The translations under genes were made by a program, and so were the position numbers. A stretch of DNA of 63,807 nucleotides, counting the filler, from Hausera hauseri (taxonomy: Eukaryota), in NCBI GenBank assembly GCA_046269625.1. It is 12 parts of 12 records of this genome, joined end to end, with 100 filler letters (N's around TTAATTAATTAA, not from the genome) between each part and the next. Parts side by side here need not be neighbours in the genome. Positions count along the whole stretch, not along the records: positions 9,155 to 16,992 come from JBJURY010901647.1; 11 more parts are not named here. One strand, written 5' to 3'. A model generated the notes under the pieces. That model ran no database searches and was not told the DNA's origin. It saw nothing but the letters and a program-made list of their open reading frames with translations. Shown piece after piece: positions 4,253-63,574 of the stretch (positions within the stretch are counted from its first letter, which is position 1; each line of letters begins with the position of its first letter).

Positions 4253-4983
4253 AGTAGTTAGAAAGGAGGACATGACCCCAAGCCCCCCCCTCCCCGGGAA
4301 GGAAAGTAAGCAATCAGCGCAGGACACGTCATCGGGGGAAAGAAAAGTGGCAAATGATAGGAGAACACGTCATCGCGGGGTGAGGGAAAAAATGGGGTAA
4401 ATTGGGTTTCACTATTCCCACCCCTTTTTGAACAAAGGATTTTCTGAGGTAGATGGGGTTTCACTATTCCCACCCCGGAACAAAGCTGGGGCAGTCGTGG
4501 TTTCACTATTCCCACCTCCATTTTGTTTTGCAAAGTTGTGAAAAAAATGTACACTATGACAAAGCACAAGACAAAAATAAGACAAAGAAGTCTGTACAAA
4601 TATTTATTACAAAATATTTACGCAATAATTTTCATAAGCTACACTATGGTTTTTATCAACCCAAGGCGTTTGTCATCGAAGGGATCCAGTGCTTTCTTTT
4701 TCGATCTAATTGTCATGAGCTGGTGGTTTTTACTACCAATTCGCTCCTGATCTACCACAGTGCTGCAACTGGTTTCATACGCCTGTAACTAGTTACTGAA
4801 TTGTAAGTCTGTTTGCATCAGGTTTATGCGCTTGCACTTGAGCACTGGTTTGGATTGGGTTTTGAGGGCATATGATTTCGGACGTAGGAAAATCGCCTCC
4901 TGATATTGAACGCTGCCCTTGCTTTCATCTTTGAATTTACCAATTACAGAAGCGAAACGAGTCGAGTACAGTGGATCACTTTT
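4253..4983 (-). mobile_element. Maverick/Polinton terminus (AGTAGT end, GC-rich TIR) plus the 3' end of protein-primed PolB
   Basis: agtagt at 4253; three subterminal ggtttcactattcccac repeats (~4404-4516); minus strand ~4620-4983 reads VIGKFKDESKG...EAIFLRPKSYAL...KKKALDPFDDKR, the pPolB C-terminus. Confidence 0.8.
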
Positions 4984-5083
4984 NNNNNNNNNNNNNNNNN
5001 NNNNNNNNNNNNNNNNNNNNNNNNNNNTTAATTAATTAANNNNNNNNNNNNNNNNNNNNNNNNNNNNNNNNNNNNNNNNNNNN
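4984..5083. other. Artificial contig linker N44-TTAATTAATTAA-N44 (also at 9055, 16993, 23126, 27951, 34818, 39627, 44341, 50566, 54935, 59752)
   Basis: Identical 100-nt spacer 11 times; TTAATTAATTAA puts stop codons in all six frames. Confidence 0.98.
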
Positions 5084-9154: not shown

Positions 9155-9435
9155 TAATTGCGAACGGGAAATCCCTTAGAGTCTCGAACTAACTGCAAAC
9201 GACTCGATGCAAAAGATTGTCTTAGTAGAGTATAGTATGTAGCACTGTTCTCACGTATTGTTATTGGTAAAATTGTAAATGTGAATTCCACCAAAGTCAC
9301 TTCCCAGGCTCCCTGGCGTAAGCAGAGCGGCTCGTCCAACGCCACTGTAAACCGTTCAGCAGTATTGTTGTTGTTGCCTTTGTTGTCATGTTGTGATAAT
9401 CTGTTACTATCAAGTACCGAATAAATGCTCACCAT
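9155..9435 (-). pseudogene. Maverick/Polinton minor capsid (penton-like) N-terminus
   Basis: SVLDSN...NTAERFTVALDEPLCLRQGAWEVTLVEFTF fits the Polinton penton start LpSn...nt..F.v.L...l.L.g.WeV.L.E; lies next to the integrase. Confidence 0.7.
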
Positions 9436-10466
9436 TTAATCTGTGATACAAATATCCAACTCTGTGTAATGTATGTATGAACCTTTGCCACGTGAACGTA
9501 GAATTTCCTGAATAAGATACACATAAGGTTTTCCCGGTAGTACTTGCAGTTCCTGTTCGTAAAATTTGTCACGTATTTGGTCACCATTTTCATCTTCTAA
9601 AACGTACATAACAGGTTTTTGTTTTGTATTGATTGATGAAATTCGGAAAATCTCATTACTCCAGTTCTGATTGAAATTCTTAATGAATGGTGTCGTACTC
9701 AGTTTTGAAATATGTACATAGTTCCCTATTTTTTACTTGGGCCGTTTAATTGGTCGTCGTTGTACTCGGTTGTGATAAAACCACATGTTGGTAACTTCAA
9801 ACGGCCGTAATCCACTGATTCTACGATGTGTCGAATGATTGTATGCATGAATAATATGGGTAATAGATCTACACAGCGTTTACTGCCCTGCTTTGTAAAG
9901 AATTTGTTTATTCAGCCGCGTAATGTTCGATTAAATCGTTCAGCGAGTGCAGCCTTCTATTGTGAAAACAGAGTAGTGGTTTATACCGAACCTGTTCAAG
10001 GCCGATGCGACATGCGAGTTGTAGAATCCTTTACCCAAATCCGTTTGTAAATGCTTCGATGGGGTTGTTGTTGTTGTTGTGGCTGGTTTATTACTTTGTA
10101 AGCAGCGTTGGCAATCTCTTTACCGGATTTAGATTTTGCGACAATTGCACGTACAAAATGAATAAAAATATCAATACATGTAATCACGTACCGTTAATGC
10201 TGGCGTACGGAATTATTTCCGTCAGATCCATTTGGCAAAAATTATTTACGCCTGCAGCACGGTATGCATGAGTTGGGAACCATTTTCCTACCGGTTTGTT
10301 TGAGCTGTATGACAACTGCTTCCCCAGCCAACGTTGGATTTGTCGCCGACTCTGCCGTACAGTCTTTGCCAGTTTGTCGACGCCAATATACTCGACGAGA
10401 TGACGCGGGTCAAACCGCACATTGCCCATTGTCGGTTTTGTCGATGGTGTCGGTTTTTCTTGCATT
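9436..10466 (-). pseudogene. Maverick/Polinton retroviral-like integrase
   Basis: FDPRH..YIGVDKL...WLGKQLSY; QMDL; ITCIDIF; KAALAERFNRTL; GNYVHISK...NWSNEIFRI...YVLEDENGDQIRDKFYEQELQ; many stops and frameshifts. Confidence 0.9.
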
Positions 10467-10574
10467 ATAACAATCTGAATGAAACAATAATGTAATTTTC
10501 GGTAAACTGGGACAAAAAGATGAAAGCCATGTACCAATATCGCTAAATCATCATATACTTACCGTCATTGTTTA

Positions 10575-10915
10575 TACTAAACTGTTTCAGCAATGAGTCT
10601 ACCCACTAAAGACGTGGCAACCAGTCGAACTGCACTAAGAAAGCCGTCATCTTGCTGGTACATGACCTATGCTTCAGTCGCTTGCTACGAGAGGTTAGCA
10701 AGGCTAGTGAGACCTTTGCGATACTTCAGTAAAATCCGCTTTCTACTACCAATGTCAACGTGACCCACAACGATATTGTATATAATTTCCATTAAATCGT
10801 CCATTACAAATTGCAGGAATGATCGTAGCACGATTCGTTTATGTCTCGATAGTGCTTTAAACAAAGCAAAAATGTACGGTTGACTACGTTTGAAACGCAT
10901 GTTTCGTCCGTGCAT
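10575..10915 (-). pseudogene. Conserved small Polinton protein (PW / protein X-like)
   Basis: Helical ORF LMEIIYNIVVGHV...KYRKGLTSLA; read-through gives MYQQDDGFLSAV, similar to the Q.GGFL motif; lies between ATPase and integrase. Confidence 0.55.
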
Positions 10916-11132
10916 ATTGATGCACTGACGACGTAGTTGTTTATAATCGTTGCCATTTTGTGGATAATTTGCGTCTCACTGCTGACGTTGTTCGATTAAT
11001 TGCTTAACTGTGACAATACGTTTTGCTGTACTTGATACACGTCTCTTTTTTACACCTGTTTGGTTGGTTCACGTTTATCAATTGTTTTTCGGAAATTTTG
11101 CTTTTGGTTTCACTCTTACTATCATGTCGATT

Positions 11133-11766
11133 TTAGAATTTGTTTATAGACATGTACTCCTTTTGGATTGAAAATATCTGTTTGTACACGCATGTTATCT
11201 TGACATTGTTGTGTAAAGTCAATAAATTGATATCTATGCGCCTTGTTCGTAGCATCATGATATGCATTCATCAAGTAGGCTCGGTTGTGAAAAAATGCTT
11301 GTCATGCAACATAATCAATGATAGTCTGATCACAGGAATTTTTGAACAACACCAACTAGTGTACGTTTAAATTTCTTGTTCGATGCTATCCGCATGATGG
11401 AACATGTTTTGCGAATTGAAAATAATCGTCGTGTCGTGCAATCTTCGTGAACAGTTTGTTGAAGTCGGTTTGTTTAGTTGCTTTCTGAAATAAATCGTCA
11501 ATGACGATAAGGTCACCGTTGCGTAATCTCTCAGACCAGTTTTTATAAAACCCATCAATTACCGTTATCAATTTTAATTTACAAAATTCCTGATGTATCA
11601 GACCGGACTCACCATCATCACCAACACCCTGATGTCAGTAAATGTGATTGTACCGGGGTGAATGAAACATGCCACGGTAGTTCTGCAATATTTTACACAC
11701 AAAGTGTGTTTTTTCACTTCAACTGGGGCCTACAATCTGGACAATTGCATCATTCTGCAGCTTCAT
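11133..11766 (-). pseudogene. Maverick/Polinton A32-like DNA-packaging ATPase
   Basis: Walker A IVGPS*SEKT, Walker B LIVIDDL, LFTKIARH, LVLFKN. Confidence 0.85.
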
Positions 11767-11853
11767 CTAAATAATACAACCTTTTCTCACATAATTTGTT
11801 TATAATCATGTTACGCACATATAAATAGCCATAATATAAACACTGTTTCCATA

Positions 11854-12279
11854 ATGTTAGCTAATATCAACTATCGCGGACATGTTACTGAGAGTGACAT
11901 TAACACATTACTTTTTAATCAATGGAAGCCGAGGCATTATGTCCTCAAGTGTCCACCGGATTTTACATGCATAATATTTTAATCGGGAAAGTGCCTTATT
12001 ATGGGTTGTCGCAAACCAATCACAGCAGACAACAGTAAACTACTGCCATTCAGAATTGTCATTAACCAAATCCAATAAATAACAGAAAAGACTCATTTAG
12101 GCTGCCCATCAATCAGTCTGTACAAATTATCAACGGCCACTGAATGTACGTATGAACCCGAACTGTTTTCTGCACTTAGACTGACATTATTTCTCCCACT
12201 TTGTGTCAATATGTTTAGCAGTGAAAAAATTGTTGTACTCCGTATTCGGACAATGTACTATAAACCGAATATTAATTAA
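11854..12279 (+). pseudogene. TATA-binding protein (TBP)-like gene inside the Maverick; intronless, two in-frame stops
   Basis: Single frame: MLANINYRG...CIIF*SGKCLIMGCRK...TYEPELFSALRLTLFLPLCVNMFSSEKIVVLRIR, matching both TBP repeats (LIFSSGKMVCTGAK and YEPELFPGL...LLIFVSGKVVLTG); absent from the ORF track because of the stops. Confidence 0.75.
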
Positions 12280-12738
12280 ATTAAAAACCACATAAATGTT
12301 TTACTGAATCAAAATAATGTACTCTGCACAACACCAGCAATCTATAAATACCATTCTCATGCTCATTCAGACATTACTGCCATGGAAGGCGACGATAAAA
12401 CGATTCTACTCAATGATGATAGTGGTTGTGAAAATAATGCAAGTTCAGATTGGTCGTGGTTGTTTGGCTACAAAAAGGATAATTCTAATGTCAAATTGCA
12501 GGGAACGAAAACAGAACCTGTCCAACAAATAGAAAAACCGTATGACAATTCTAATGTCGATTGTCTGGAGGACAATTATGATGTCGATTATCTAGAAACA
12601 AAAAAGGAACTTGCACAGAAATAAACAAAACCGATATTAAAAAGGCAAGTAGCAATGATTGAAATACGTAAATGAAAATCAAAACTGCCTCGCCAAACAC
12701 CGACACGTTTACCGAAACAAATTTTTCGCAAGTATGAA

Positions 12739-13095
12739 ATGCATTTTCTACAAATGCCCGTATTGATTTCATTGAATGATCCAATGTCTATGTGCTCACC
12801 CAAGTACCGCTATCGTGTAAAACGGCTTTTGAATAAAACTTTTTATAAACTTTCTGATGCTCTGCATCAATTAAACCTGAATTTAAAGTGGAACGAACCG
12901 ACCTTGAAAGAGCAATCTCTCGTTTTACCAGCCACAAAAACAAAACTGTTTTATTTTATCGATCGCGAAATGTCTAACGTGCCTGATAATGATTTGCAGT
13001 ACCAATTAAACATTGAATTGCAAGGATACAAGGAAAAGGACGGAATCAAAAGCACGATTTGGAGTGTAGTTGAAGCACGCTTTAATTATCAATAA
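12739..13095 (+). CDS. Maverick accessory protein of unknown function (possibly OB-fold/SSB-like)
   Basis: 118-aa ORF within the co-oriented accessory block; ends LNIELQGYKEKDGIKSTIWSV. Confidence 0.3.
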   Translation: MHFLQMPVLISLNDPMSMCSPKYRYRVKRLLNKTFYKLSDALHQLNLNLKWNEPTLKEQSLVLPATKTKLFYFIDREMSNVPDNDLQYQLNIELQGYKEKDGIKSTIWSVVEARFNYQ

Positions 13096-13197
13096 ATATT
13101 GTTGTTGTTTTTCTTCTTTTATTGTTGCTTTTTCTTTCATGATTCCAATTGACGAATATAAATATACGTGTAATTTGTTTGTTAGTATTAGATGATA

Positions 13198-13570
13198 ATG
13201 TATGATGTAAAGATTATTTTAACTGATGAAAGTGCTACTGTACTGAGACGTGTTACAACAAACATTGCAGGCTACCATGTGTTTTCTAATGTCAATGTAT
13301 AACGACCGGTATTCTATTGGCGATCCCGTACGGTTACTATGGCCAACTGATTACAAAAATCTGATTGGCAAAGCTTGGACTTACGGTTGTGGTGGTGTTA
13401 TTGATTCAGACTTCCGTGGCGAAATTAAGGTGTTGCTGAAAAACCAATTCGGGGAAACGTATGCTTTTTTTGAAAAGCAGTGCAATCATCCAAATCGTTT
13501 TTCTTCGGTGTGAAGAGGCGGAATTCAGTGTAATATCACCAGAACAACGGGGATTGTTTTGTGTCATAAA
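13198..13570 (+). pseudogene. dUTPase (Maverick-borne)
   Basis: AGYHVFS (motif 1), GGVIDSDFRGEIKVLLKN (motif 3), AIIQIVF (motif 4), EQRG (motif 5), across frameshifts. Confidence 0.85.
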
Positions 13571-13712
13571 GCAACACGAAATGAACGCAATGAATTTGTC
13601 TTTGGTGACATGGACAATAAACCTGTGTTTAAAGATTGTGATGATAATAATAATATTAGTTAGTTGTTTGGTTTGTTCTATAAAGAAAAAATGATTTTTT
13701 ACATGATAGGTA

Positions 13713-14205
13713 ATGGCGACAGGATTTATAGATATTGAAGCATTCCAAGATAACAATGCCCAGTACATAATAAAGGAATTATGCATTATGAATGCCGGTA
13801 TTATTTTCAAACCGATTGTATACGTATTCAAGCCCGGTATTGTGTGGAATGACCTGACGGAAGATGCGAAAATTACAAATGGATTTCTCTTTTGACATCG
13901 TCATGGACTTCATTGGTATGAATATAATTCAACATTTTTTGTGTCGTATATTATTTGCGAAATTTGTAATCGTTTTGACGTTGAAAATACAATGTTTTAC
14001 ATTAACGATCAAATTTACGGACCAAAGTTTACGCAACTACATTCACACTTTCCCGAGTTGCGAACGACTACGTTTTTAACATCGAAAAACTCGCTGGTGA
14101 TGGTACTTGACAATGTTAGATGACCATATCGTGATCATGGACCACATTGTTTCATGCAAATAAATATACGTATTTGTTTTCTCTTATGTAAATATGGTAC
14201 ATGAT
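13713..14205 (+). pseudogene. DEDD-family 3'-5' exonuclease-like Maverick accessory gene
   Basis: FIDIEAFQD...YIIKEL...YVFKP...WNDL...NGFLF*HRHGLHW: ExoI D-x-E plus the KEL/FKP/HGL.W signature. Confidence 0.65.
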
Positions 14206-14570
14206 GACATTAATAAATGATCATAAAGACATAAATGATCTAGTTGACATTACTGTTTATTTAAGAAAACATAACTTTTGGGCATTGGTATATATTTCCG
14301 GAAAAAAGATATTATCATAACATGTGTCAACAACCAGTATGAAGACAGTTTCGAACTCGTAATATAACCCTCTAATGTTTACACTTGTGCAATATAAACA
14401 AAACAATTTGAACCAATGTGATATATATAGAGGCACCATTTCATTTCATTCTGTCTGTCTCGAAAAATATCTTTTCATGATGAAAACAATTCAAGTGACA
14501 GTTCTGCGAGTCTACAAGATACATTCCATAATCGCTCAGAACATCCAGGTTGTATAATGAATACAACTTA

Positions 14571-14757
14571 AGTAGTGGGGAAATGCCGATTCGGTCACAA
14601 TCCTCCCCCTCGGGACTTGTGACCGAATGGGCATTTCCAAAATCTGGTTTGGTAAGATATTTAAACTAAACAAAATTGTGGAGTGTGACCGAATGGGAAT
14701 TTCCCCAATCAGGTTTGGTAAGACATTTAAACTAAACAAAATTGGGGAGTGTGACCT
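14571..14757 (+). repeat. AGTAGT-initiated terminus-like block with a 22-bp hairpin and a 66-bp tandem duplication
   Basis: ggaaatgccgattcggtcacaa / ttgtgaccgaatgggcatttcc (21 of 22 complementary, 14579-14638); 66-nt unit gtgaccgaatggg...ggagt twice from 14619. Confidence 0.6.
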
Positions 14758-14961
14758 ATAATTTTTCATAAGAAATTTAAACAAAGTTAGCGTAAAATTT
14801 GAATTTTTAAAACCCTTAAATCATTTTGAATCCATACTGTACGCCTGCTTGTGTGTATCACCTCAGAATGTCAATATTTCTTATTTTCACCTATTAACCA
14901 TGCATGTGTGTATCGTTTTGGCTTACCCACAACACGTCTATGAACCACATCTATTTTAGTC

Positions 14962-15060
14962 AGTAGGGGGAAAATGGGAAGTCTGTCCCACCCCGGCGGG
15001 TAATAGATAAATCGATACTGCACATGTGCTAATTGATAGTGCACCCGGTGCACTATTTGT
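14962..15060 (-). repeat. Terminal-repeat fragment shared with 49925-50028 (probable Maverick TIR)
   Basis: Reverse complement aligns with tgcactatcgattagcacatg...ggggtgggacaga...cccatttt...tact in contig 9. Confidence 0.65.
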
Positions 15061-15804
15061 ACGTATTTATTAGTGATTAAATTAAACGATGTTATTTCAG
15101 AATCCCGGAAATATTTTAAGGGGTGATAATGTGGAGGCTAAGGAGAATTGTACTCCTGACAGATATGCAAAAAGCCAAGAGGTAAGTTTGCAACACTTTG
15201 ATTTTTTATGGACGAGAACAGAGTGTCTGCGTTGTGAACCGTCGGGAAGTTAATAAAAACTGTGACATCAAGCAAAAATGGAGATTTTCAGAAATAGTTA
15301 TAGTTTGGTTGAACGAGTATTCCCGGTGGGTTTGATGGTGCAATGGTGTAAGGAAAATGTGAATGATGGTCTCCAAATTCATCCGACATCAACTCATGGG
15401 ACTACTCTGTTTGAGATGAATCTGTACACCAGATGAAATGAGACATATTTAAAATTCGATTTTTGTAATGTTTTTATGGTTTTTCAAAAAAGCGTCCATT
15501 CATTATGCGTCACCAGTTATTTTGTTCAGATCAATGGATACATACTACTACATAGACGACATCATTCAACAAGAGCATACAAAACTTTACGATAAATCCA
15601 TTTCCAAGTAAATTTTATTATATTTCCATATGGTAACAAAGGAGAGCATGCAATGCAAAGAAGTTTATTTGGACACGCAAATTTACGAGACGGGCAAATT
15701 GACAACAACAACAACAATAATCAACTCAAATTATCACTATTTAATTGTACGAAAAAAATATTTGACTTTTGAGAAAAGCATTTCAGTAATAATTGAATCG
15801 ATTT

Positions 15805-16959
15805 TCAAAATTGCCGAGACTGTAACGTCCGATTAGACAGTGGACTCGATACTGAGGCGTTCAAATTAGACAAGGCTTTGTGATTTTCACAAACAGTGGA
15901 TTCCGTTTTACTGTTATGGTCGAATGGTAACGAATTCGCATTCTGACCAAATGACGTCACATCATTTGTTGCACTGTTTTCATTACTCCACGAATTCTCC
16001 ACAAATTCCATTCGACTGGTTTTGTTTGAATGGTGGCGATGTACTGAAATGTTGTGTCCTTCCATTTGCTCAACAACCTCCACGTTCGGGCTAACTTTAC
16101 TAACAGCAGTTTGTTCGATTTTATCGGCAGAATTGTCGTCCAACAATTTCGTGGATAATGCACATTCTTCATAATCTTTAATCAAACACGCTATATTCTC
16201 TAAAGCATCTTTGAACTCATCCTCCTCCATTCCTTCGCCGACATACCAATGAACGTAAGCTCTTTTTTGAAACAATATCTGAAACCGAAAAATGCTCTGT
16301 AACAGTGCATCAGTAATACAGGAATTGTTCGACAGAATGGAAACGATCTTGTCGGACTCACCAAAATGACTATCGTGAACGTGTATCGGTGACCTTTGAC
16401 ACAGCATTACTTTAACCCCAGTCGGACACCAGTCGACGAATGTTAGAGTTTCGTGAAATTTCAGTCGAGCTACGGTTGAACGAACGTCAACGGAGTTGAC
16501 ATTTCCTCGATACATCAAACAACAGGCTAACATTTTCCCACCGATGGGGTCACAACTCAACAGTTGTGATTTGCTCGTTAGAGCTTCTCGAGTTATGCAA
16601 AAGACGGAATTTGGCGAATGCATTTGCGTACTCGGACTATTGACCGGAGCCAAACTGCAAATGGGAAAATGCATTCGGGGATACGGTACGATGTTGTTGA
16701 GAATCTCTGTTGTTGATGAACTGTGATCACTATATCTAACGGATGATGTAAATACGTTAAAATATTGAGCCATTATTCGATTTATGTCGTTATAAGTCGG
16801 TTTAGCTTTCATCGGTGCTTCTGTAGCAATCCGAAACAATGATTCATTGTCAGCTAAAAATGTAACATCGGTTTCGTCAATTGTGTAGTGTTTGGTTAGA
16901 ACACTGTTGTATGGTTCAACTAATACTGGTGAAGAAGGGAATGATGGGTGGATGGACAA
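15805..16959 (-). CDS. Divergent alpha-tubulin, C-terminal two-thirds (5' part lost at the contig end), with a ~118-aa tail extension
   Basis: VEPYNSVL, DNESL, PTYNDINR, VPYPRMHFP, MLACCLMYRG, FVDWCPTG, KRAYVHWYVGEGMEE, KDYEE; uninterrupted ORF. Confidence 0.92.
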   Translation of the reverse strand: MSIHPSFPSSPVLVEPYNSVLTKHYTIDETDVTFLADNESLFRIATEAPMKAKPTYNDINRIMAQYFNVFTSSVRYSDHSSSTTEILNNIVPYPRMHFPICSLAPVNSPSTQMHSPNSVFCITREALTSKSQLLSCDPIGGKMLACCLMYRGNVNSVDVRSTVARLKFHETLTFVDWCPTGVKVMLCQRSPIHVHDSHFGESDKIVSILSNNSCITDALLQSIFRFQILFQKRAYVHWYVGEGMEEDEFKDALENIACLIKDYEECALSTKLLDDNSADKIEQTAVSKVSPNVEVVEQMEGHNISVHRHHSNKTSRMEFVENSWSNENSATNDVTSFGQNANSLPFDHNSKTESTVCENHKALSNLNASVSSPLSNRTLQSRQF

Positions 16960-17092
16960 ATGGATGGTTGGATGGATGGATGGATGGATGGANNNNNNNN
17001 NNNNNNNNNNNNNNNNNNNNNNNNNNNNNNNNNNNNTTAATTAATTAANNNNNNNNNNNNNNNNNNNNNNNNNNNNNNNNNNNNNNNNNNNN

Positions 17093-25949: not shown

Positions 25950-27850
25950 TACCATTTAATCCTGGGGAAGGAGTTCGGTTTCCGCCTCTTGAAGGGTATG
26001 GACTAGGATTTCTATTATATCTATCCGATTCTTTTCGAGTCGGAGTGTAGTCGCGTCTTGTATCGTAATTTCCCGATCTTGAATCATTATAATCAGTTCG
26101 ATTATCGTTTCTAGGACTATGTCTTTCTCTACTATCACCCCGTCGATTATCTCTTTCTCTCTTATCACTTCTATTAAAATTATTATATCTTTCACGACTA
26201 TCCTGTCTTCTAAACCTTTCTCAACTCTCACTTCGCCTATCATTAGGATAGTTAGATCTTACTTGTTCCCGTCGATTATTTGGATATCTTGTTCGACTAT
26301 CGTCTCGTAGATATCGTGCTTGATTATCATCCCGTGGATATCGTATTCGACTATCATCTCGTTTATAGTATGAATTTCTATCCTCATAACGCCCAAAATT
26401 TCGGTCGTTGCTATATTTTTCTCTACTAGGGAATCGACTTTTATTATCATTTCTGTCTCTCGAATCACCTCGTGTTCTATCATATCTATTATCGTTTCGC
26501 TGTCGATCATCATAGTTTCCCCTATTTTGTTGATACTGCATATCTCTTTGGTTGCTATTATAATTTCTGGATGCTTGATTAAAACTTCTTCTTTCCGGGG
26601 TATTGCTTCGTTGAAATGTGTTGTTATCTGATCGGTTGGGACTTTGACTTCTCAATGAGTCCCTCCAAGGTGAATTACTACGATTTGGTACATAAGGTCT
26701 TACTAGTAATGGCGTCGTAGCTACTGCTGCCATTTGCATTTGGTTAGTCCATAAAGGTGTTTCATCTATTCGCGTTGCCATTTTTCTAGTATAGTCTATT
26801 AATTCATTAATATTGTTGGCAGTATGAAACTTAACTCCTTCTCTTAAGGGTGGTAAAAGTCCTAGTACAAATTGTTTCATTATCATGGCACTGAAAGCAT
26901 TTGCGTTATGACCAAAATATCTAGTCATTGCCGTTTTAAATCTATTAATGTAGATCAACACTTCTTCATTGGGCTTCTGCTTACAATTTTGGAATTTCAG
27001 ATGTCGATTCTCTTGTATATTAACCTGTTGATTTTGTAGAATTCTTTCTCGGTGTTGTAACCAAGTTTCGTTTACTCGTGGGGGTAGACGCGTTATTGCC
27101 ATCCTTAAATCATTATTCACATGTACTTGTAGGAGTGATATTTTCTTCGCGTCACTCCAATGCATGGCAGTGGCCAGAGAATCATATTTATCTAAGAAAT
27201 CTTCCAGGTCCGATACTCGTCCTTCATACGGTTGAAGGCGGGGAAGTGTTTGATATTTCTCTTCTCTTCATTGCAGTCATAGATAATATTATTATTGTTA
27301 GAATCACAGTTATATCTGTTTCGAGGAGCCGATGGCTCTCGATTATCCCTTTGTGGGTCCATGTTGTCGCTATCGATGTCAGAAATTTCACAAGACACTG
27401 AGCTTACATCTATTGAAAATTCAGATGTATGTACCTTTTCTTGACGTCGGGTTATTGCTTCTTCTGTCCTTGCTTGCTCAAGGCGTTCATTCAATCGGTC
27501 TATATCTCGTATCAACGTCTCTATTTAATTTCTAGTACAATTATTTCCTTCTTGAATCTGTTTCTGTTCGTTTACTATAACTGTTACGTGGTTCTGCATA
27601 TCATTTATCCTTTGTCTTACTTGTCTTTCATTGTTATCTATTTGTTCTCTGTTTCTATATAATGTAGCTATATTATCGATAGTTTGTTGTCGAATATCAC
27701 GCATTTGTCTAGAATAGATGCTAACTTCTTGTGCGAGTTGACCAGTTTTCTCATCCAATTCATTTAAACCCATACTATTATCATTCACTTTTTGCTCTAT
27801 TTGGGTGATTCTTCCTTCAACTTCGTCTAATCTTATACCATTATTCATAA
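25950..27850 (-). pseudogene. gag: Gag with an N-terminal coiled coil and a long Arg/Asp/Asn-rich C-terminus lacking CCHC
   Basis: HWSDAKKISLL...FQNCKQKPNEEVLIYINRF...KQFVLGLLPPLR, typical retrotransposon capsid motifs (Q..NE.V..Y..RF, F..GL). Confidence 0.85.
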
Positions 27851-28050: not shown

Positions 28051-28888
28051 CAAAAACCATCGGATGCGCTGCCACAGCGGCAAACCGTCAGGTATGGGTG
28101 GAAAAATCAAAAACACTGACAATGTGTGGACCGCTATACTTTGACTTTTTTGATCATCTGAAATACCTATTACCCGGTGTTAAAGCTATGATTTGGCTCA
28201 AACGAAGCGACAATGTCTTTTGTTTGAAAATCACCGTTGAAAATCTCAAACCCATACTAAAAATAACCGAGGCACGATTATACGTACGTCGAGTAAAAGT
28301 AGAACCGTCTGTGCTCATGGGACACCGATTGGGCTTGGAAACGAAAATGCCTATTACCCGATACAACGCACAGAACTCATCTTTTACACCATACCAAAAG
28401 GTTTAACTACGTTTTACAAAGGTGCATTGTTTGGTGACATGCGATTACCGAAATTTGTGCTTGTTACTTTTCAAACGACTGTTCAACAAACGAGCAGTTA
28501 TACCACCGATTCGGAAACGTATACCTACAGCAATGTGAATTACATCAGTTTGGGTCGGAATGCGGATTTCGTTGAGACGTACAAACAAGATTTTTAGTCT
28601 AATGATTTTGTTTGCACATATATGCAATCTATTGTGCACAATATGGGTTTGTTGAACAAAAATGTCACCAATGGTATATAGATGGATTTATTCAAATCTA
28701 CCTACCCATTCTTCACGTTTGTCTTGGATCCGGATTATGACGTTCAAAAGATTCAACTACTTCAGCAGGGAAACCTACGACTGGAGGTTCACTTTGCTAA
28801 AGCGTTGGAGCAATCTACCTTGATGTACATTTACGGTGTATTTGATGCCGAGGTTGAAATAACGAAAAACGGAATCGTCATTGTATAA
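28051..28888 (+). pseudogene. Maverick/Polinton major capsid protein (double jelly-roll), C-terminal part
   Basis: GPLYFDFF..KYLLPGV...LKITEARLYVRRVKV...RLPKFVLVTF...GNLRLEVHFAKAL...YGVFDAEVEI. Confidence 0.88.
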
Positions 28889-28974
28889 ATAAAATCCGCT
28901 GTGTCTCACCTTTTCTTCTTCGTCATACAATGAAGTAATTTACTATTATTATTATACTTAAATCACATTTTCAC

Positions 28975-29410
28975 ATTCAGCTCTACCGAGCTCAGTCATT
29001 ACTAAAAACTGCTATTGTGCGTGAAATTTTGTTGTGTTTCCACTGGACAGTGTGCCGCGTGATTTACAACAATCTGGCGGCTTTATTTTCAATACACAAA
29101 CTTCATCGTCGCCGGGCGAACATTGGATTGCTGTGTACGTCCATCCGGCCAACGTCGTCAGAGTATTCGATCTGCTCGGATTTTACTATCCGTCATCTTT
29201 AGTTTCTCAAATTGAACGGCAATCATCATCATACCGTGTTGAATATAATCGAGTTTATTATCAACATCCAATGACTATACTACGTGGACATTATTGCTTA
29301 TTGTGGCTAATATTACAATCACTTTTGTGAAATATATATGTATTATTTCCTTGCTGTTGTTTTGTGTACCAAAGAGCGAACAAATCATGAGAAATAATGA
29401 TGTAACAATC
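28975..29410 (+). pseudogene. Adenain-like cysteine protease (Maverick)
   Basis: FIFNTQTSSSPGEHWIAVY...FDLLG...YQHPMTILRGHYC (catalytic Cys of CG.yC changed to Arg). Confidence 0.88.
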
Positions 29411-33800: not shown

Positions 33801-34817
33801 ATTATTGACGACTTAATTCTCTAACCACTCAAGGTAGCTACCTTCTGCCTTTCATAGCTGATATCTTTCATCGTCTCGACGGCTGAAAAATATTTTCCCC
33901 TATAGATATACATAAGGCCTATCATCAGATACCTGTCGTTACACCATATTTCCTAAAAACGGCCGTAACAACTCCATTTGGACTGTATGAATATCTATAC
34001 ATGCATTTTGTATTACATAATTTCGCACAAGTATTCCAAAGACATATTGATTCGGTCATATCAGATTTACATTTCTCATTCCCTTACATTGACGACATTC
34101 TCATAGCATCCAATAAGTTAAGCATCTGAAACGTATATTTTCACGACTCCATAAACATAATTTACAAATTAACTGGGGTAAATGTAATTTTCTATTTTCT
34201 CACATAACTTATAATTTCTATAAAATTTCAAAAGAATGTTACTCATCTCTACCCGAACGGTTACAATAAGTTAAAGAGGTACTTTTGCCCCTGACAATTT
34301 CAGACTTACATAGCTTCTTGGGGATGGTAAATTTTTGTCATAACTACATAACAAACTGCTCCATGTACACAGCTAAGCTTACAGCATTGTCTTCAGGACC
34401 ATAACGTTGGAAGATCCAATGGACTAAAGATCTTCAATCTGACTTTGAATTGTTAAAAACAAAATTAGAAAGCATTAAAATACTAGCATACCCAACATCA
34501 AACGCCCAATTGTTTCTAACCACAAATGCATCTAATGTCGCTGCTGGAGCAGTACATCACCAAAAAGTAAATGACGAACAACAAACTCTGGGATTTTTTA
34601 GTACTAAATTTAGTGCAGCTGGAACTAAATACACCACTTTCGACTGGGAGCTTCTTTCCATTTTTCTCGCTCTTAAATATTTCCGGTATATATCAGAAGG
34701 AATATATTTCATATGGCAAACGGATCACAAGCCGCTTGTACATATAATGCACATGAAAAACCCTTCTTCTAGACAAGAAAGACAAAAATCATTCCTTTCA
34801 CAGTTTTTGTTTGATAT
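30840..34817 (+). mobile_element. Decayed conventional Gypsy retrotransposon (gag, protease, RT, RNase H)
   Basis: gag LGNSTPSDHLR; protease VDTG (~33215); RT RPCGDY*RLN, KAYHQIP, TPFGLYEY, YIDDILIAS; RNase H TNASNVAAGAV, YTTFDWELL, TDHKPL. Confidence 0.88.
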
Positions 34818-37756
34818 NNNNNNNNNNNNNNNNNNNNNNNNNNNNNNNNNNNNNNNNNNNNTTAATTAATTAANNNNNNNNNNNNNNNNNNNNNNNNNNN
34901 NNNNNNNNNNNNNNNNNATGTCTTGAAGTCAGTTTCCATGCGGGGGGGGGGCTTTAACCTCTAAACCTCTCTTCGGCACTCACTGGTCACAGTGTAGTAA
35001 GCGATAGCAACGGCATTTTTAAAATGTCATACTCAGTGTGACAGACGATAGGAAAGGGTTATAATTACTTTTATTTGACTATAATGCGCGTGACCTTTCT
35101 CAAAGGCCATTAGGCCTCAATAACTACACATGAATTTAAGAACATTGTAAAAGTTTTATTTTACAAATTACTTATAACATGTTTCACATTATTTTATAAT
35201 GAATTCCATACTTTAGAATTTTGTATAATTATTTAAAATTACGGAACAGAACTACATGATGTTATCTAAGCCAATTGTATAAGTTTTACAGTACAAGGCT
35301 GAACTGGACTAATTTTCGGAAGCCGATGCCAGTACTTTTGATGTACCAGATACCAGAACTAGTACAGATATAAATATCAACGCAAAATATTAACAACGTT
35401 CATATATACGATTATATAACACTTACTCTGACAATATCAATTATAAGGAAGAATGCACATGAACCGTAAACAAATGCAACTCAGTCCATGAACTTAATTA
35501 CCTCTGTGTTTGTGGATAAGTATTGGAGAAGCATCTCGTCATTTAAAGGTAGTCATTCCCACGGAAATATTTACACATGTCAGCCATGCACAAAATGAAA
35601 CCTGTTTCATTTAACATTTTTAACAATTGCACAATATAATTTTACCAGTGTGGTGGATCCCGTTTCTAAATATCCAATCCACTTGTTTTTTAGATATTTC
35701 GAAATGGGTTCTACCATATTAGAAAAATAATATTATGTTATTGTAAAGAAAGTTAAAGAAAATATTTTTATATTGAGCGTGTCTAATTGAAAATTCACTT
35801 AAAAACTAATATAAGATACGTTTAAAAGCAGAGAACTCATGTTCATATGAAAACAAAATTCTATATAGAGTTAATAAACTATATGGTATTTTTGTTTAAA
35901 ATCACAATTTCCAAAATTTTTACCACAAACTCTCTTCAGTTTTTGCTTTGACTCTTACAAATTTTGAAAACTATTCAAGGAAATTCGTTTATTCGAGTAT
36001 TACATTCAAATTTCGTGCACAGTTTGCGAAATTGATATACATTTCATGAATTAACTGGCAAATGTCTTCAGTTTATAACAAGTTTAAAAGAAATGCAATT
36101 AGTTCATGAACGTATGGAATTGAGGTTAAATGGTGATAACGGTGATCGATATTCATATACTGCTCGGGTATTTAATGCTTGCTCATTTATTGTCATTTAG
36201 ATGCTTTGTCACGTTGTTACGCAAATTCTTTCATTTTGTTGTTTGTACTCACGAAGGAATCTGCCAAAGTTGGCATTTAAAATGATACTACATGTGAATT
36301 CTCTAATTTATTTCATGTAACTTTAAAAAAGGGAAATGAAGAAGTTAAGAAATTGTGGCAAATACATGATCATTTCCATAAACCTTTCAATGTCAATTAC
36401 ATTTGAATTTGAATAATTTCAAAATTATTACAAAACCATGGCATGTTTCACAGACGTTTGCCATGAGTTCAAGATTTGTGAATGATACTGATATCGTGAG
36501 TCACAGATTCATAATTTGTCCAATTGATGGATGGTACTTGATTGCTTGAAAAGGTGCTGTAAGAAATGGATTCAATAGCGTTACGATAAGTCAAAGGACA
36601 ATTCATTATTGGAAAGGATTTCCTAAACTGTGGTGAAAGATGCGTATGCTCAAGTTGCACAACATTGCGTATTATGCAAATGTGTTTATTTAAAAAATAT
36701 TGACTTTTAATGAATTTTTAAATTTCGCTGTTTTTAATAAATAAGGAAGTATGAGTATTTGTATTAACCCACAAATTATCAATTCTTTAATGTGATAAAA
36801 ATATTTCGTGTTCATATTCTCTCGTCTCATTGCTTTATCAACAAATCCTTTCAGTAATTCTAATCGTCAATTGTCATCAAACCTAGTAATTCTTCTTCTT
36901 TTGCCCCTTTTAGTTAAATCGATTCTATCTGGTATAGGAATGATAAGTAATATGGTAATTCTATGACTTCATGGAGATCTCGACATGCAATTCTTCTGTG
37001 ATTTGATAAATGTTTTCTTTCTGGAAGCCTCTGGTAAAGTCCATTGATAAACTGTTCATATATATCTTTTTTGAAATTGATAGAGTGCAATGTTAATACA
37101 CTAACCAAATTTTCTTTATGACCATTCCATGGTTGATATTTCAATCATTTGAAGTTGGAATTTTTCCATGAACGTGTACGCATGTTGCTGAAAAACTGAA
37201 CTTTCTTCTTGTACATAAAATAAAAAATGTCATTTTATGATGCGTATAAATTGAACTCACTTTTGGAGTATCTTAGATATCAACAGTTAAATTTGGATAA
37301 GCTAAAATGATAATGAAAACAGAATTAATTTGTGTTTGTCACATTTATCCTACTGTGGAATTGATTATTGAAACTAAAATTGCTCTTCACAGTAAACCCA
37401 TTGTATGCTTTATGAAGACGTCATACGAAGGAAGTTATATTGCGTCTCTGACGAATCAAAACGAACTCTTTCCAAATGTATTCAGAAACTGTCAGTTTTA
37501 TTTATTCATTGGTTTATCTTTATTGCCATAATCAGATCTGAAAGACAGGCGAATCGACAGTTTAATATCCATGTTGAGAACACAAATGTATTAGTAATTA
37601 TTGACTGCAAACGACCGGAATAAAAAAATCGGATGGCATGAAAATTCGAACATAGACATCCAAGTCGTTTGCATATTTGAATTCAAAAATATTAATAATC
37701 TGGATAAAATCTAATGCAACTGTGATTTTGAAAAATTTATTGACTTGTGCAATTTT

Positions 37757-45769: not shown

Positions 45770-48300
45770 TATGAAACATCAATGTTGACGGTGAAGAATC
45801 CAACAGGGCCTTCAAGGCTAAAAATAGACCCATATTGGAAAAGAACAATATTGCAGAATGGATGCAAGAGGCGCACGAGAAGCTGATCCGTGAAGCCGCG
45901 GAGAGCCAGGATAAAACGAGCGGATGGACTCTGACAACCATCAAGAGATTTATTGTATATGTTCAGAAGTACTCTCCCATGCGGTTCAGTTCATATATTG
46001 AGCTCCTTGATTGGATCGCTAATAAAAAAGCGTGTCAGTGTCTATAATAACGACAACATGTGTTTCATGTACGTCATTCTGTCAAAACTCGTAACGGATC
46101 AAAGTCATGTTTTACGAGTTTCGCTATATAAGGATGTGCAGTACAACTATAACTTCCAATGTATAAAGTTCCCACCATCCATAGATGAAGTCAAAAAATT
46201 CGGACGACCCAATAATATATCAATCAATATCTTGGGATTGTATTAGGAAGACAAATTCTATCCCCTGCAGATATGTGATGCTGAATTGGAAAACCATAGG
46301 GATTTGCTCCTACTAGATGATGGTGAAAAGAGGCATTTCATCTGGATAAAGAACTGTGAACGTCTAGTCAGATCCCAAATTACAAAACATGAGGAAAGAA
46401 TCGAAATATGCAAACGATGCTTGTCCCATTTCAGCCGCAAGTTCGCTGCGGAGAAGCTGAAGGAGCACAAGATGTACTGCACCAACGATTATTGTATCAG
46501 GCCAGAATTTCCAAAGGAGGATTACATTGAATTCAAGGAGTTCGAGAAGAAGATCAAGGTCCCAATAGTTATCTGTTGCGACTTTGAAGCTATCCTGTGC
46601 CCAGTTCAGAGTTGCAGTCCTAATCCCCAACATAGCAGCACAACAGCATACCAATATGATGAACTCTCATCATATTGCATATATGCCAAAGGACTGGACA
46701 GTGAACCATATCTATTCAGAGGTCCAGGTGCAGCAGCACATTTCATGAAACGATTTGAAGATATGGTTCATAGGATTGGAGATATACAGCAGCAGCAGCA
46801 GCAGCATAAGGATACAATGAGCATGTCGAAGCAGCGAGAAGAATGGCGCAAGGCAACAGCATGTTACTTGTGATCCAAATCATTCACTAAGGACAATCAT
46901 AAAGTCAGGGATCATTGACATTTCACGGGCAAATATCGTGGCGCAGCATTCAACAACTGCAATATACGCCGCAAAAATGTACATATATGCCTGTAGTGTT
47001 TTATAATTTCAGTGGCTATGATTCCAATTTCATTGTTCTGGAACTGGCCAGCATTGAAGGAAACATTGATGTGATCCCTAATAGTGAGGAAAAATACATC
47101 ACATTTACCAAGCATGTTGGAAAAATCTGGCTTCGCTTCATAGACAATTTCCGTTTCATGTCGTCTTCACTTGACAGTTTAGTGAAGAACCTCCTTGCAG
47201 AAGAACTCAAGGGGACGAAGCGGTTCTTTTCCACTGCATTTGACCTCGTAAAGAGGAAAGGCGTATTTCCCTATGACTATATAACTTCATCGGAAACACT
47301 GGATGAGACCTCATTGCCGGCCAAGAAGGATTTTTACAATATCCTCTTTGATTGCGACATCAATGATATAAACTACCAGCGTGCCCAAAACACCTGTGAG
47401 GCATTTCAATGCCGAATATTAGAAGAATACAGCGACATATACAACAAGACGGATGTGCTGCTGCAGATGGATGTCTTTGAGAGCTTCAGGAATGTTAATA
47501 TAAAGAGCCATGCATCGGATCCAGATCATTCCTTTACTTCTCCAGGGATGCGTTTGGCAGCTATGCTGAGATATACAGGTGTCAGGCTGCAGATCATAAC
47601 GGATTACGACATGATCCTCATGATTGAAAGAGGCATTAGGGCGGAATATGCCAGGCCAATCACCGGTATAGCGAGGCCAACAACAAGTATATGGCCCAGT
47701 ATGATCCATTCAAGGAATCCGCATGTATATCATACCTGGATGCCAACAACTTGTATGGATGGGCAATGAGCGCCCCATTGCCATATGATAACTTCAAGTG
47801 GGTCGAGCATCCTGAAAACATCCCTATACTGGACCTGGATCTAACTGGAGATACGGGATACATACTGGAGGTAGATATGGAATATCCGTCTTTTATCCAC
47901 ACAAGGCATGAGCAGCTGCCTTTCCTCCCAGAGGACAAAAGACCACCGAATGGGGGATTAGAAAAGTTACTATGCCATCTTTGAAATCGGGAAAGATACG
48001 TAGTCCACAACATAACTCTCCAGCAAACGGTCAGAAATGGACTCCGCATTACTAAGATCCATCGGGCCCTGCAGTTCATCTAGTCCATGTGGCTGCAGCC
48101 CTACATAGACCTCGATACGAAGCTGCGGACAAATGCCAAGAAAGACTTTGAGAAGGACCAGTTCAAGCTTTACAACAACAGCGTTTCTTCCAAGACCATG
48201 GATAATATCGGCAACGGGATCAACATCGAACTCGTCTCTTAGTGGAAGCGGACAAAGAAGCTCATTGCCAAGCTTAACTTTGACAGCAGCACCATATACA
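45770..48300 (+). pseudogene. Maverick/Polinton protein-primed DNA polymerase B with an endonuclease VII-like insert
   Basis: SGWTL, NNDNMCF, HFIWIKN, CDFEA, VRDH*HFTGKYRGAA..NCN, YNFSGYD, KRKGVFPYDY, YLDANNLYGWAMS, GYILEVDMEYP, FKLYNNS. Confidence 0.93.
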
Positions 48301-50776: not shown

Positions 50777-53507
50777 CAGGGTTGCCAGATGAAAAAAATT
50801 GTTTTAGGCCAAACAGTACTAAAAATAGGCCAGAAAAAGGCCAAATGACACTGTAAAGAGGCCAAAAAAAAGGCCAAACCAATTTAAGTACATTTTTAAG
50901 TCTTTTAACATAAATTTAAAATCACATCATACTGCTGCACAAAAAACAAGCTATAACTCAAAAAAGGAAATTAAAATAGCATATTATTGCACACTGCAAT
51001 CACATAAACAGCTCCAGATCTTCGTCATCGTTTCCATCATGATCATTGCTGACGCTTAATCTTTGGCCATAAACTATATCAGATATGAAGTTCTGAAGCA
51101 TCTTGGGAGTAACAGTAAAGTCTTTACAGCACTTATTAGACAGTAACAAATCTGTCCTGATTCTAACAATAGCATCCAGAAGATAAATCTGCATTCTATT
51201 TCTTGCTTTAGTCTTCACTGATGATACCACTGAGAATATCCTCTCGACTACTGCGTTACTTACTGGTGTTACCAAACAGGTAAGGGCGAAGGAGGCAAGC
51301 TCTTTGAACATTTGGTGCTGAAGGACACCAATCCAAAACTGTTCACTGTCTTCTGGGAGACCTTGATCTTTAAAAGGAATTTCTTCCTTCCAGTTAACAA
51401 AAGCAATTTTTCTGTACTGTTCTTCTATAATAGATATATTGTTTTCAGTAAGATGCAGGAATGGCAGCTCAGAAAATATGGGCCTTGACACTTGGTTCAA
51501 AATGACCACAGGGCTCAATTTCGATAGACCTTGAAATGTGTCTCTTGCTGAAGGAATTCTTGCTGTAATTTGAGTGAAAGCTTCCTCCAACATAAGGAGA
51601 CATCTTTCTTTCACATAGTCTATCTCTTGTTGAGCCTGAGCAGTCTGGTTCTGAAGTAAATATTTACTACAGTCTGTTAGAAATTTGATGCCAAAATCAA
51701 CTTGACGAATGTTCTTTTTCTGCATATTAGCATCATATAGTCTGCTCTGTAGACTTCTGTGGTGCAAGAGTAATTCGTGATGCAACTGATTAGGATCAGC
51801 TTTTGTTTGCTGAAAAAGGCTGTTTAGTTTCTCAAATTCCTGCACAACAGGTGTTGCAAACTCGAAAAACAAATAATTTTTGTGATCAGACAGCATGTCT
51901 TTCAACACATGTGCTTTATATTTTATATTAAACTGTAATTGTCCAAGTTCAGCTGAAGTAAAATATGCCTTGAGCTCTTCCCAGTTCATCAAAATATTGA
52001 ACATCACTTTGCCACGGACAAGCCACCGAGTTGATGAAGGTTTTTCAAAAGGGAGTGGAGCCGCTCGAACCTGATCAAATTCTGATGTGTTGATAACTCT
52101 AAACAGTTCTTTGTATGCTTCTCGTCTTAATTCACTGTGGCGAAACCACTGAGGTATCTCTGACAGTAAGAATCCGATACTTGCTGGCAGTTTTGAAACT
52201 GCATGTTGAATACAGAGTGCCAATGAATGACAGATACATTTGAGCTGCACACAGAAGGGAGATATATCTTTCATCCGCGACCACACTGAATTGTTGCAGC
52301 CTATCATGTTTGATGCACCATCGGACGCAAAGCCAATACAGTTATTAAGACTCTGGCCACATTTCCTGATTTCATCATCGATCAGATTGAATATGTTTTC
52401 GCCCGTACATTGCTGAACTGGAATTAAACCCAGAAATCCAGTAAAAATTTGCATTCTTTTATCACTGAAAAAGCGGACTAAAATACACAAATACTTTTGT
52501 GTCGAAATATCAGTTGATTCATCAACAATAATTGTGTACTTCTTGTTTTGAAAGTCTTCAATCAGGTCATCTTTCAGAGAAGGCGATATGACGTTTTTTA
52601 TCAAGCATACACATTTAGTTCTGTGTAATTTTATGTGTTCAAGTGTGCTTCCCTGTCCATGTGCTTTGATTAATTCACCAAAATGATCAACAGCACGCAC
52701 TGCACAATGACATGCCATAGACACTGCAATCTGTAGCTCTGCCACTTTAACGTTATCATCAATTTGAATTTGTTTGGATGACTTTACAGCGTTAATTTGA
52801 GTTTGACCTTTGGATACAGTTCTCTGTCTATGTTTATCTGACTTTTCGTGCTTTGCAAGATTACACAATTTTGGTGCAATATTGCTATGACAAACTTTGC
52901 AGTAAGCCTCTTCTGATCCGTCGGAGGCCTTTTTGACCCACAAAAAGGTTTTTTCCCAGTTAGTATTGTATTTACGACACTTGTCATAAGAAGATCTCCA
53001 CTTTCCTGACGACATTGTCGGGTTCAAAAGATTTGTTAATAAAATTAATAAATTAATTTATAAAGTCAACAAGTGTCACTCACAGTTATATTAATTAATA
53101 ATACAACTCGCTTTTGATCTAGTTATAATTCACATTAAAACAATGGCTGCTTGAAGCAAGTAGATTCAAACTGATTGCCTTGCTGCGTAACAATTTTGAA
53201 AGTTTGAAAAGACGGATGCACGATGTATGCCAGGAAATTCGGTCAGTCAGACAGGAAGGATGCCTGGATGTGCCTGATTTTGTTGGGTAGAGTGACCAAA
53301 ATCCAATTTACTTGAAATATTTATCTTAATTTCTTGAAAATAAATTTTAGAATGAAAAAGCCAAAACATGGCCAAAAAGGCCAAACAAGATGCAAAAAAG
53401 GCCAGGACGGGGCCAAGAGGCCAAATCAAATTTTCTGAGGCCAAGCACGTTGAAAAAAGGCCAAATTTCCGGAATTTGGCCACCAAGAGGCCAAGTTGGC
53501 AACCCTG
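50777..53507 (-). mobile_element. Complete hAT transposon
   Basis: 11-bp TIRs cagggttgcca / tggcaaccctg; many subterminal ggccaa motifs at both ends. Confidence 0.92.
51000..53015 (-). CDS. hAT transposase (intact, intronless, ~671 aa from ATG)
   Basis: Zn finger AYCKVC...HEKSDKH; VDESTD; ASDGAS; CICHSLAL; STRWL; VSNAVVERIFS dimerisation motif. Confidence 0.95.
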   Translation of the reverse strand: MSSGKWRSSYDKCRKYNTNWEKTFLWVKKASDGSEEAYCKVCHSNIAPKLCNLAKHEKSDKHRQRTVSKGQTQINAVKSSKQIQIDDNVKVAELQIAVSMACHCAVRAVDHFGELIKAHGQGSTLEHIKLHRTKCVCLIKNVISPSLKDDLIEDFQNKKYTIIVDESTDISTQKYLCILVRFFSDKRMQIFTGFLGLIPVQQCTGENIFNLIDDEIRKCGQSLNNCIGFASDGASNMIGCNNSVWSRMKDISPFCVQLKCICHSLALCIQHAVSKLPASIGFLLSEIPQWFRHSELRREAYKELFRVINTSEFDQVRAAPLPFEKPSSTRWLVRGKVMFNILMNWEELKAYFTSAELGQLQFNIKYKAHVLKDMLSDHKNYLFFEFATPVVQEFEKLNSLFQQTKADPNQLHHELLLHHRSLQSRLYDANMQKKNIRQVDFGIKFLTDCSKYLLQNQTAQAQQEIDYVKERCLLMLEEAFTQITARIPSARDTFQGLSKLSPVVILNQVSRPIFSELPFLHLTENNISIIEEQYRKIAFVNWKEEIPFKDQGLPEDSEQFWIGVLQHQMFKELASFALTCLVTPVSNAVVERIFSVVSSVKTKARNRMQIYLLDAIVRIRTDLLLSNKCCKDFTVTPKMLQNFISDIVYGQRLSVSNDHDGNDDEDLELFM

Positions 53508-62897: not shown

Positions 62898-63275
62898 TCA
62901 TAAAGCGAGGAACATACTTGGAACACAGTTTTTGATGCTAAAAGCTTTCAGTTTGGTGTAAACACCACCGACACTGATGTTTAAGTAAGTTGCCAACACT
63001 TTCAGATATTCGTCGATGTTTCGTACAATGTCCAACAATTTTTCACTTGTGGAATCACAAATTTTTTGTAGTCTTCCTTCCCAAACTGATGCCTTCCAAC
63101 CTCTGAACTCGGGTACCCAGTATTTCACCGTAGTCAGAGATGGCGCATTATTCTGGTATGTTGTTTCCAGTTGATCAAAAATTTTCTTGCAAGACTTTCC
63201 TTGAAATACGAAAAATTTGATTACACTGCGGCAGTTTATGGGAGAAATCATGATTATGGCGAAATTTTGGTTCAC
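62898..63275 (-). pseudogene. Mariner transposase N-terminal HTH remnant
   Basis: RSVIKFFVFQGKSCKKIFDQLETTYQNNAPSLTTVKYWVPEFR. Confidence 0.8.
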
Positions 63276-63574
63276 TGCTGCTGCTATGAAACTCTGAAAT
63301 GATATAGTAAAAGAAACCTCAATATTTGAACCTATATAAGTTTTATGTGTTATCCATAAAAACTTATCAATTTATTCCTTTTATTTCTGTCTCAGTCCGA
63401 GTACTTATTTATCGCATAACGTATGCATGAATACATGACTTGCATACAAAAACAATTTCGCCATTTTGTTTTACTTGTTTAAACATAAAGGTCATTGTCA
63501 TATACATTTCTTTGTCCACAGAATTGAAAATTGTACAAGTAGTGGGTTGTGCAGTGTCTAAAACAGGGTCAGTA

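Follow-up and report, generated by a model that had tools for sequence, protein, structure and literature searches.

Polintons (Mavericks, adintoviruses) carry an rve integrase, an A32/FtsK-type packaging ATPase, pPolB, an adenain-type protease and a double-jelly-roll capsid protein according to the available part of PMC8502044, a gene set shared by the relatives that we describe here. In the same source, the only mention of a TBP-like gene stands in the legend to a figure of non-animal MELD elements (Starrett et al. 2021, PMC8502044), and the available part gives no late promoter word; one supplement mentions neither TBP nor TATA, and its genome maps are figures that could name TBP in animal elements. 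Openly accessible literature yielded no account of a reduced-TBP family or of the promoter word YATAAACR: TBP and TATA occur 0 times in PMC11131425 and in bioRxiv 10.64898/2026.06.19.733378, and the available part of PMC2396422 contains no TATAAAC.

Cellular and archaeal TBPs (PDB 7egb_P, 1cdw_A, 2z8u_B) share with the element protein studied here the saddle fold, a complete C-lobe, the YEPE stirrup and three phenylalanines. As described in the accessible text of PMC7221094, the N-lobe surface of TBP binds TFIIA, TAF1, Mot1, Brf1 and Brf2, and two C-lobe glutamates contact TFIIB. By the same text, the TBPs of nucleocytoviruses and mirusviruses resemble the element TBP in having lost the basic N-lobe signature and kept the DNA-contact phenylalanines; they differ in that the TFIIB-contact glutamates are kept in ~40%, nearly all with a viral TFIIB, compared with 94-99% in element TBPs, for which none was found. 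The best viral fold match to the element TBP reached a TM of 0.57-0.70 at 16-17% identity. KSHV ORF24, a TBP mimic of beta/gamma-herpesviruses associated with TATT promoters, has in common with our proposal the use of ordinary early promoters and a divergent TATA-like late word, and resembles the element protein in pairing a viral TBP fold with greater polarity on the DNA face (PMC12529657, accessible text). The element protein differs in its length of ~150 aa, its kept TFIIB surface and its much closer sequence to TBP, and it lacks the large size and the Pol II-binding N-terminal domain of the herpesvirus vTBPs (ORF24/UL87/BcRF1), which work in a six-factor complex. It is a member of the TBP family, not a canonical TBP, and does not belong to the herpesvirus mimic family.

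To our knowledge, the field has yet to settle how Polintons activate capsid and packaging genes, or whether those of animals make particles by themselves. Here we describe a decayed TBP-like gene in a Polinton fragment and its intact relatives. Our main reading, to which we assign a probability of roughly 60%, is that the intact reduced TBP, encoded beside the packaging and integration genes, is the element's own late-promoter factor; the frame reported here is a dead copy of its gene.

The decayed TBP-like gene and its element

The window, a stretch of 63,807 nucleotides from Hausera hauseri, consists of 12 small unlinked contigs joined by 100-nt spacers, so genes on opposite sides of a spacer are not neighbours; the contig with the TBP-like gene covers 9155-16992. 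We read 11854-12279 (+) as 142 codons carrying the signatures IF*SGKCLIMG and YEPELFSALRL...VNMFSSEKIVVL, in agreement with the sequence-only reading, which had described an intronless frame of ~140 codons with both TBP repeat signatures, interrupted by two stops. Two TAA stops do lie inside the frame (codons 43 and 75), although two is not the total: the frame matches the intact relative P0002 to about codon 160 (~12333), with 110/161 residues identical (68%), so a third stop at 12277-12279 (codon 142) is also an internal break. The packaging ATPase does start 88 nt away and divergently, with its ATG at 11766 on the minus strand. In the profile check that had been proposed, the frame with X at its stops matched Pfam TBP (PF00352) in two stretches at E 4e-9 and 36.6 bits, above the cut-off of 22.9; none of 11 other frames scanned alongside matched TBP, and all 30 PDB sequence matches to the frame at E up to 10 were TBPs or TBP fusions. 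The window copy departs from the family at 5 of the 18 columns conserved at 90% or more. Stops also interrupt the ATPase, integrase, PW-like and C1 frames beside it; with these genes broken too, the element copy in the window is dead, and it is unable to make a TBP protein.

Table 1. Features of the window, by position, with side observations in the last five rows.
Feature	Position	Strand	Remarks
N/TTAATTAATTAA spacer blocks	4984-5083 and ten more 100-nt blocks		
Cluster C5 gene start, cut by contig end	9265..9369	-	tblastn E 5e-5; putative minor capsid by position
rve integrase, broken by stops and frameshifts	9466..10456	-	tblastn in three frames; intact relatives match PF00665
YATAAACR word	10569..10576	-	5' of integrase
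Small conserved Polinton gene, cluster C4, broken	10580..10915	-	tblastn E 1e-22; 2 stops
YATAAACR word	10938..10945	-	30-45 nt 5' of PW-like gene
A32-type packaging ATPase, broken	11128..11766	-	5 stops; 54-56% by tblastn against the intact ATPases at related loci
YATAAACR word	11141..11148	-	at the 3' end of the ATPase; a short unassigned frame follows
YATAAACR word	11797..11804	-	38 nt 5' of ATPase ATG
Canonical-type TATA box TATAAATA	11820..11827	+	34 nt 5' of TBP ATG; candidate host-read promoter, putative function
YATAAACR match	11835..11842	+	19 nt 5' of TBP ATG; atypical, 0/57 relatives have one there
Reduced TBP-like pseudogene	11854..12333	+	three in-frame stops (codons 43, 75, 142); PF00352
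Cluster C3 gene, conserved, unknown	12706..13077	+	20 related loci; frequent neighbour of the TBP gene
dUTPase remnant	13343..13540	+	PF00692 E 9e-4, below cut-off
Cluster C1 gene, conserved, unknown, broken	13713..14150	+	25 related loci; relatives without Pfam match
Small element, 22-nt hairpin and two 66-nt direct repeats	14576-14749		just past the Maverick genes; repeated in run X1
Divergent tubulin frame	15805-16992	-	Tubulin_C E 2e-31; open for 395 codons; long Ser/Asn-rich tail; low-depth host flank
Capsid plus protease and two polymerase fragments, on other contigs	28056-29297, 45859-48239, 4663-4980	+, +, -	
hAT-type transposase, mariner HTH, retrotransposon RNase H and gag-like frames	51000-53057, 62898-63371, 34405-34869, 26221-27267	-, -, +, -	
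Degenerate array of a 16-nt unit	57838-58753		

Cluster C4 is the gene that we take to be PW. The ATPases of related loci match Pox_A32 (PF04665), and the ATPase frame of the window itself has no Pfam match. Cluster C3 likewise has no Pfam match, and its best ESM Atlas score was 0.85, no more than a lead, with nothing at 0.9 or above. The contig with the TBP-like gene ends at 9155 and lacks pPolB, the protease and the double-jelly-roll capsid; these occur in the TBP-bearing relatives L013, L034, L056 and L082, and fragments of them lie elsewhere in the window, on different contigs. Polintons are marked by long terminal inverted repeats and a 6-bp target duplication; no terminal pair was found in 14000-15800, in L082 or in L013, and the contig covers only one side of the element.

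Intact relatives in Polintons

A first search returned 2 intact clusters among 5 candidates, with six members altogether. A search of 50%-identity representatives gave 106 clusters at E up to 1e-10 and 670 at E up to 1e-3, the weaker of which include ordinary TBPs, and a profile search retained 967 of 2368 candidates, some of which may likewise be ordinary TBPs. The intact P0002 and P0003 scored 59 and 63 bits against Pfam TBP, and all ESM Atlas matches to P0002 were TBP-domain clusters, whose taxa are based on 1-8 members. In metagenomes, 195 stretches encode a relative. A Polinton core gene was present in 38 of the best 80 of these 195, which we analysed, and in 18 of the 21 that reached at least 4 kb; the loci without one were mostly short. 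Pfam families in TBP-bearing loci comprised rve, Pox_A32, DNA_pol_B_2 (protein-primed PolB) and Peptidase_C5 (adenovirus-type protease). The cluster C9 protein has a double-jelly-roll capsid fold (E 1e-14) like the capsids of iridovirus, PBCV-1 and mavirus, an identity that came from a fold search, the capsid profile having no PDB sequence match. Accessory genes of TBP-bearing loci (L056, L058, L068, L031, L023, L060) encode PLA2-like, KilA-N, C2H2 zinc finger, LRR, ubiquitin-conjugating and RING proteins.

We also aligned to the window 22,675 contigs of run X1, the one run found to contain the stretch and possibly the source sample. Between 9155 and 14132, an interval with the integrase, ATPase and TBP bins, summed depth, which is not equivalent to copy number, was 1e4-3e5, whereas the tubulin flank had 3-34; one divergent contig spans both the ATPase and TBP. 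The proposal that the element carries its own shortened TBP is borne out by the Pfam match, the Polinton context and the placement on one TBP branch, and the gene extends beyond this single copy, with intact relatives in Polintons and a divergent contig bridging it to the ATPase. Among 68 intact locus genes, the median dN/dS was 0.20 over 52 non-independent pairs with usable synonymous distance, and the ATPase gave 0.026 (4 pairs); judged by the median ratio, the intact relatives of the window TBP are under purifying selection.

Scanning IMG/VR with P0002 gave no match; with the family alignment, a single locus came up, on a large-virus contig that encodes a full-length TBP. The ATPase and capsid alignments matched nothing in IMG/VR, which hence supplied no TBP-less complete Polintons as controls, and a phage collection had no match to the ATPase. 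A search led by the ATPase, and blind to TBP, produced 8 loci (L082-L089), contigs in bacterial MAGs with Polinton-type ATPases. These are probably eukaryotic elements that were binned in error, and one of them, L082, is nearly complete at 12.7 kb.

A quick TBP tree, built from 72 rows picked by hand, put 52 reduced TBPs on one long branch (SH-aLRT 99), within which a short subgroup (90) places the window copy beside P0002 and P0003. Outside this branch fell the archaeal-type TBPs, one plant-type TBP, one large-virus TBP (L001) and six full-length TBPs of the L086 type. In the tree comparison that had been called for, viral, archaeal and plant-type TBPs thus stand apart from the reduced branch; the plant-type TBP is the one cellular eukaryotic row, with no animal TBP or TRF in the tree. 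An ATPase tree of 33 rows divided the TBP-bearing elements from five others (97, under a long-branch warning). The short and mid-length TBP subgroups recur in it, which fits vertical inheritance. The TBP of L086 (2443-2976, minus strand) is a full-length, 177-aa two-lobe protein (Pfam 114 bits) in a small clade of its own, apart from the reduced TBPs. L086 is a different Polinton fragment, with a BIR/IAP gene, an ATPase, a capsid and a PC4-like ORF on a contig without YATAAACR, and its TBP is possibly a second, separate capture by Polintons.

The reduced fold and the promoter word

The predicted structure of P0002 (pLDDT 95.9) has strands throughout and helices only at 85-91 and 133-157, and it superposed on TBP with a Z of 13.2 and an rmsd of 2.5 over 146 residues. 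The reduced TBP is predicted to be a two-lobe, ten-stranded TBP saddle without the N-lobe helices H1 and H2; cellular TBP is marked by four helices, including the basic N-lobe H2, and the model has two. The span that holds H2 has a median of 20 residues, against 32 in the plant-type P0089 and 32-33 in cellular TBP, and the span that holds H1 has 37 residues against 46 in P0089, with C-lobe spans the same. The N-lobe linker has a net charge of -1 in reduced TBPs and +2 in cellular ones. Among 202 non-redundant members, 159 belong to the short and 41 to the mid-length type; most proteins have 145-175 aa, no part of which lies beyond the TBP fold.

In the same 202 members, the C-lobe glutamate pair that contacts TFIIB is kept at 94% and 99%, and three of the four intercalating phenylalanines at 98-100%. 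Of the phenylalanines that the sequence-only reading had proposed to check, the first N-lobe one has no conserved counterpart. At positions that we take to be DNA-facing in cellular TBP, the family has become fixed (83-99%) for different residues, most of them polar; among these positions are those equivalent to yeast I194, V203 and L205, in a register set by alignment offset. These three residues give altered specificity in TBPm3 (accessible text of PMC1636458). Besides the missing H1 and H2 of the model, the element TBP thus differs from cellular TBP in its length of ~145-165 aa, in the loss of one phenylalanine, in its changed DNA face and in being encoded by a mobile element. No TFIIB was found in element ORFs across 88 Pfam scans, in elements none of which is complete end to end.

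To characterize the sequence ahead of element genes, we collected 332 upstream windows, reduced to 273 after removal of near-duplicates. The word TATAAACA occurred in 80/273 of them, against 3.0 in shuffles. YATAAACR precedes 76/92 morphogenesis and integration (late-type) genes, being absent from the other 16, and 0/57 TBP genes; the Fisher p of 7e-27 overstates this association because the rows are related. By gene, YATAAACR was found 5' of the ATPase in 25/26 cases, PW in 15/16, integrase in 11/14, C5 in 9/14, capsid in 9/10, protease in 2/4, C19 in 5/5 and C31 in 0/3, and 5' of C3 in 1/15, the zinc finger gene in 0/9, C1 in 16/24 and the polymerase in 1/3. Its position is typically 30-59 nt 5' of the ATG (89/134 matches), mostly on the sense strand with 4 antisense matches, and the word is the same in the short and mid-length subgroups. 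TBP-gene upstreams have a canonical TATA in 21/57 and an initiator-like word in 18/57. As with the TBP gene, canonical TATA stands 5' of C12 genes (6/9) and C10 genes (3/5), which may form an early class with it.

Across the window as a whole, YATAAACR shows no enrichment (18 matches, 16.1 expected); the element part has 7 against 1.96 expected, a count reached in 1 of 100 shuffles. Enrichment in L013 and L083 alone was not significant (8 and 9 of 100 shuffles). Of the loci found through the ATPase, L082 and L083 both contain a reduced TBP gene: in L082 the word stands 5' of 7/7 late-type genes and not of TBP, and in L083 5' of PW, integrase and PLA2 and not of the ATPase. The other 6/8 (L084-L089), partial contigs of 3-14 kb, have neither a reduced TBP nor YATAAACR before the listed ORFs. 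Gene and word mark one ATPase branch, so their association amounts to a single independent contrast.

Possible roles of the element TBP

If the intact reduced TBP is the element's own late-promoter factor, host TBP and Pol II would transcribe its gene early, using a normal TATA box. The TBP so produced would bind YATAAACR through its re-fixed DNA face, such that an intact member should favour this word over TATAAAAG or scrambled DNA, and would recruit host TFIIB and Pol II via the kept YEPE stirrup. Packaging, capsid and integrase genes would thereby be switched on as late genes, and loss of H2 would free the element TBP from control by TAF1, TFIIA, Mot1 and Brf1. Early and late genes would then follow in two steps, comparable to the cascade of beta/gamma-herpesviruses but run by one ~150-residue protein. 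The YATAAACR match 19 nt upstream of the window TBP gene itself runs counter to this proposal, as do the small share of TBP genes with a canonical TATA (21/57) or an initiator-like word (18/57), the 16/92 late-type genes that lack YATAAACR, its presence 5' of 16/24 C1 and 1/3 polymerase genes, the one intercalating phenylalanine without a conserved counterpart, and the restriction of gene and word to a single contrast. The sequence-only reading had left it between redirecting and antagonising host TFIID; because the helix that binds TAF1, TFIIA, Mot1 and Brf1 is lost and a private TATA-like word stands on element genes, the evidence points to redirecting, through a late-promoter factor that uses host TFIIB.

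The foremost alternative, the antagonist side of the sequence-only reading, is one that we nevertheless consider unlikely. In it, YATAAACR serves host TBP as a weak TATA box, while the element TBP acts as a decoy by sequestering host TFIIB or blocking the promoters of the host. The C(-25) TATA variant of PDB entry 1qn3 presumably reads TATAAACG. Wild-type TBP was crystallised on this variant, going by the title of the entry (PDB 1qn3), so host TBP may read YATAAACR; a decoy would also suit a protein whose TFIIB-contact glutamates are its best-kept surface and which has lost one intercalating phenylalanine. A pure TFIIB sink, however, would not need new residues on its DNA face, and here that face is re-fixed across the 202 members rather than degenerate. 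In addition, C at TATA positions 6-8 is selected against by yeast TBPm3 and TFIIIB (PMC1636458, in the part accessible), and YATAAACR avoids the TBP gene itself in 57/57 relatives.

It is also conceivable, if improbable, that YATAAACR is read mainly by C1, C3, C12 or the zinc-finger protein, the small TBP then being either one component of a small viral pre-initiation complex or without a direct role. C1 accompanies the TBP gene in 25 loci and C3 in 20, and six late factors are required in herpesviruses (PMC12529657, accessible text); yet none of the four genes is present in every near-complete element, and the word is TATA-like in both sequence and position and identical in both subgroups. 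We see a slimmer chance that the protein works outside Pol II late transcription, for instance with Brf2 and Pol III or in DNA bending at the element's termini, and that the word is a lineage habit. The same glutamates contact Brf1 and Brf2 (accessible text of PMC7221094), but the N-lobe surface that Brf1 uses is missing, and the word lies at the Pol II TATA distance, on the sense strand, before protein-coding genes. Finally, a one-off retrocopy of a host TBP or TRF, inserted in one Maverick and decayed, would match the intronless and broken window copy and is hardly credible: P0002 is ~27% identical to cellular TBP, against 68% between the window copy and its intact element relative, depth is high across the TBP gene, the Polinton context is conserved, the relatives are under purifying selection, and the intact metagenome relatives, Polinton core genes and single reduced-TBP branch refute it.

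Since the window copy is dead, its worth is as a pointer to the family. Beyond the late-promoter role of the intact protein, we give even odds to the wider proposition that a widespread Polinton lineage runs a one-gene early-late cascade, in which a ~150-residue TBP without the regulatory helices, its specificity changed to YATAAACR, uses host TFIIB. A named factor together with a named promoter word provides a marker to seek in transcriptomes. The family is a natural TBP deletion series (full, mid-length and short) that shows which surfaces are dispensable, and it is a candidate orthogonal promoter system. If the wider proposition is true, these elements would hold a natural minimal orthogonal TBP-promoter pair, and with it the switch that times their particle production.
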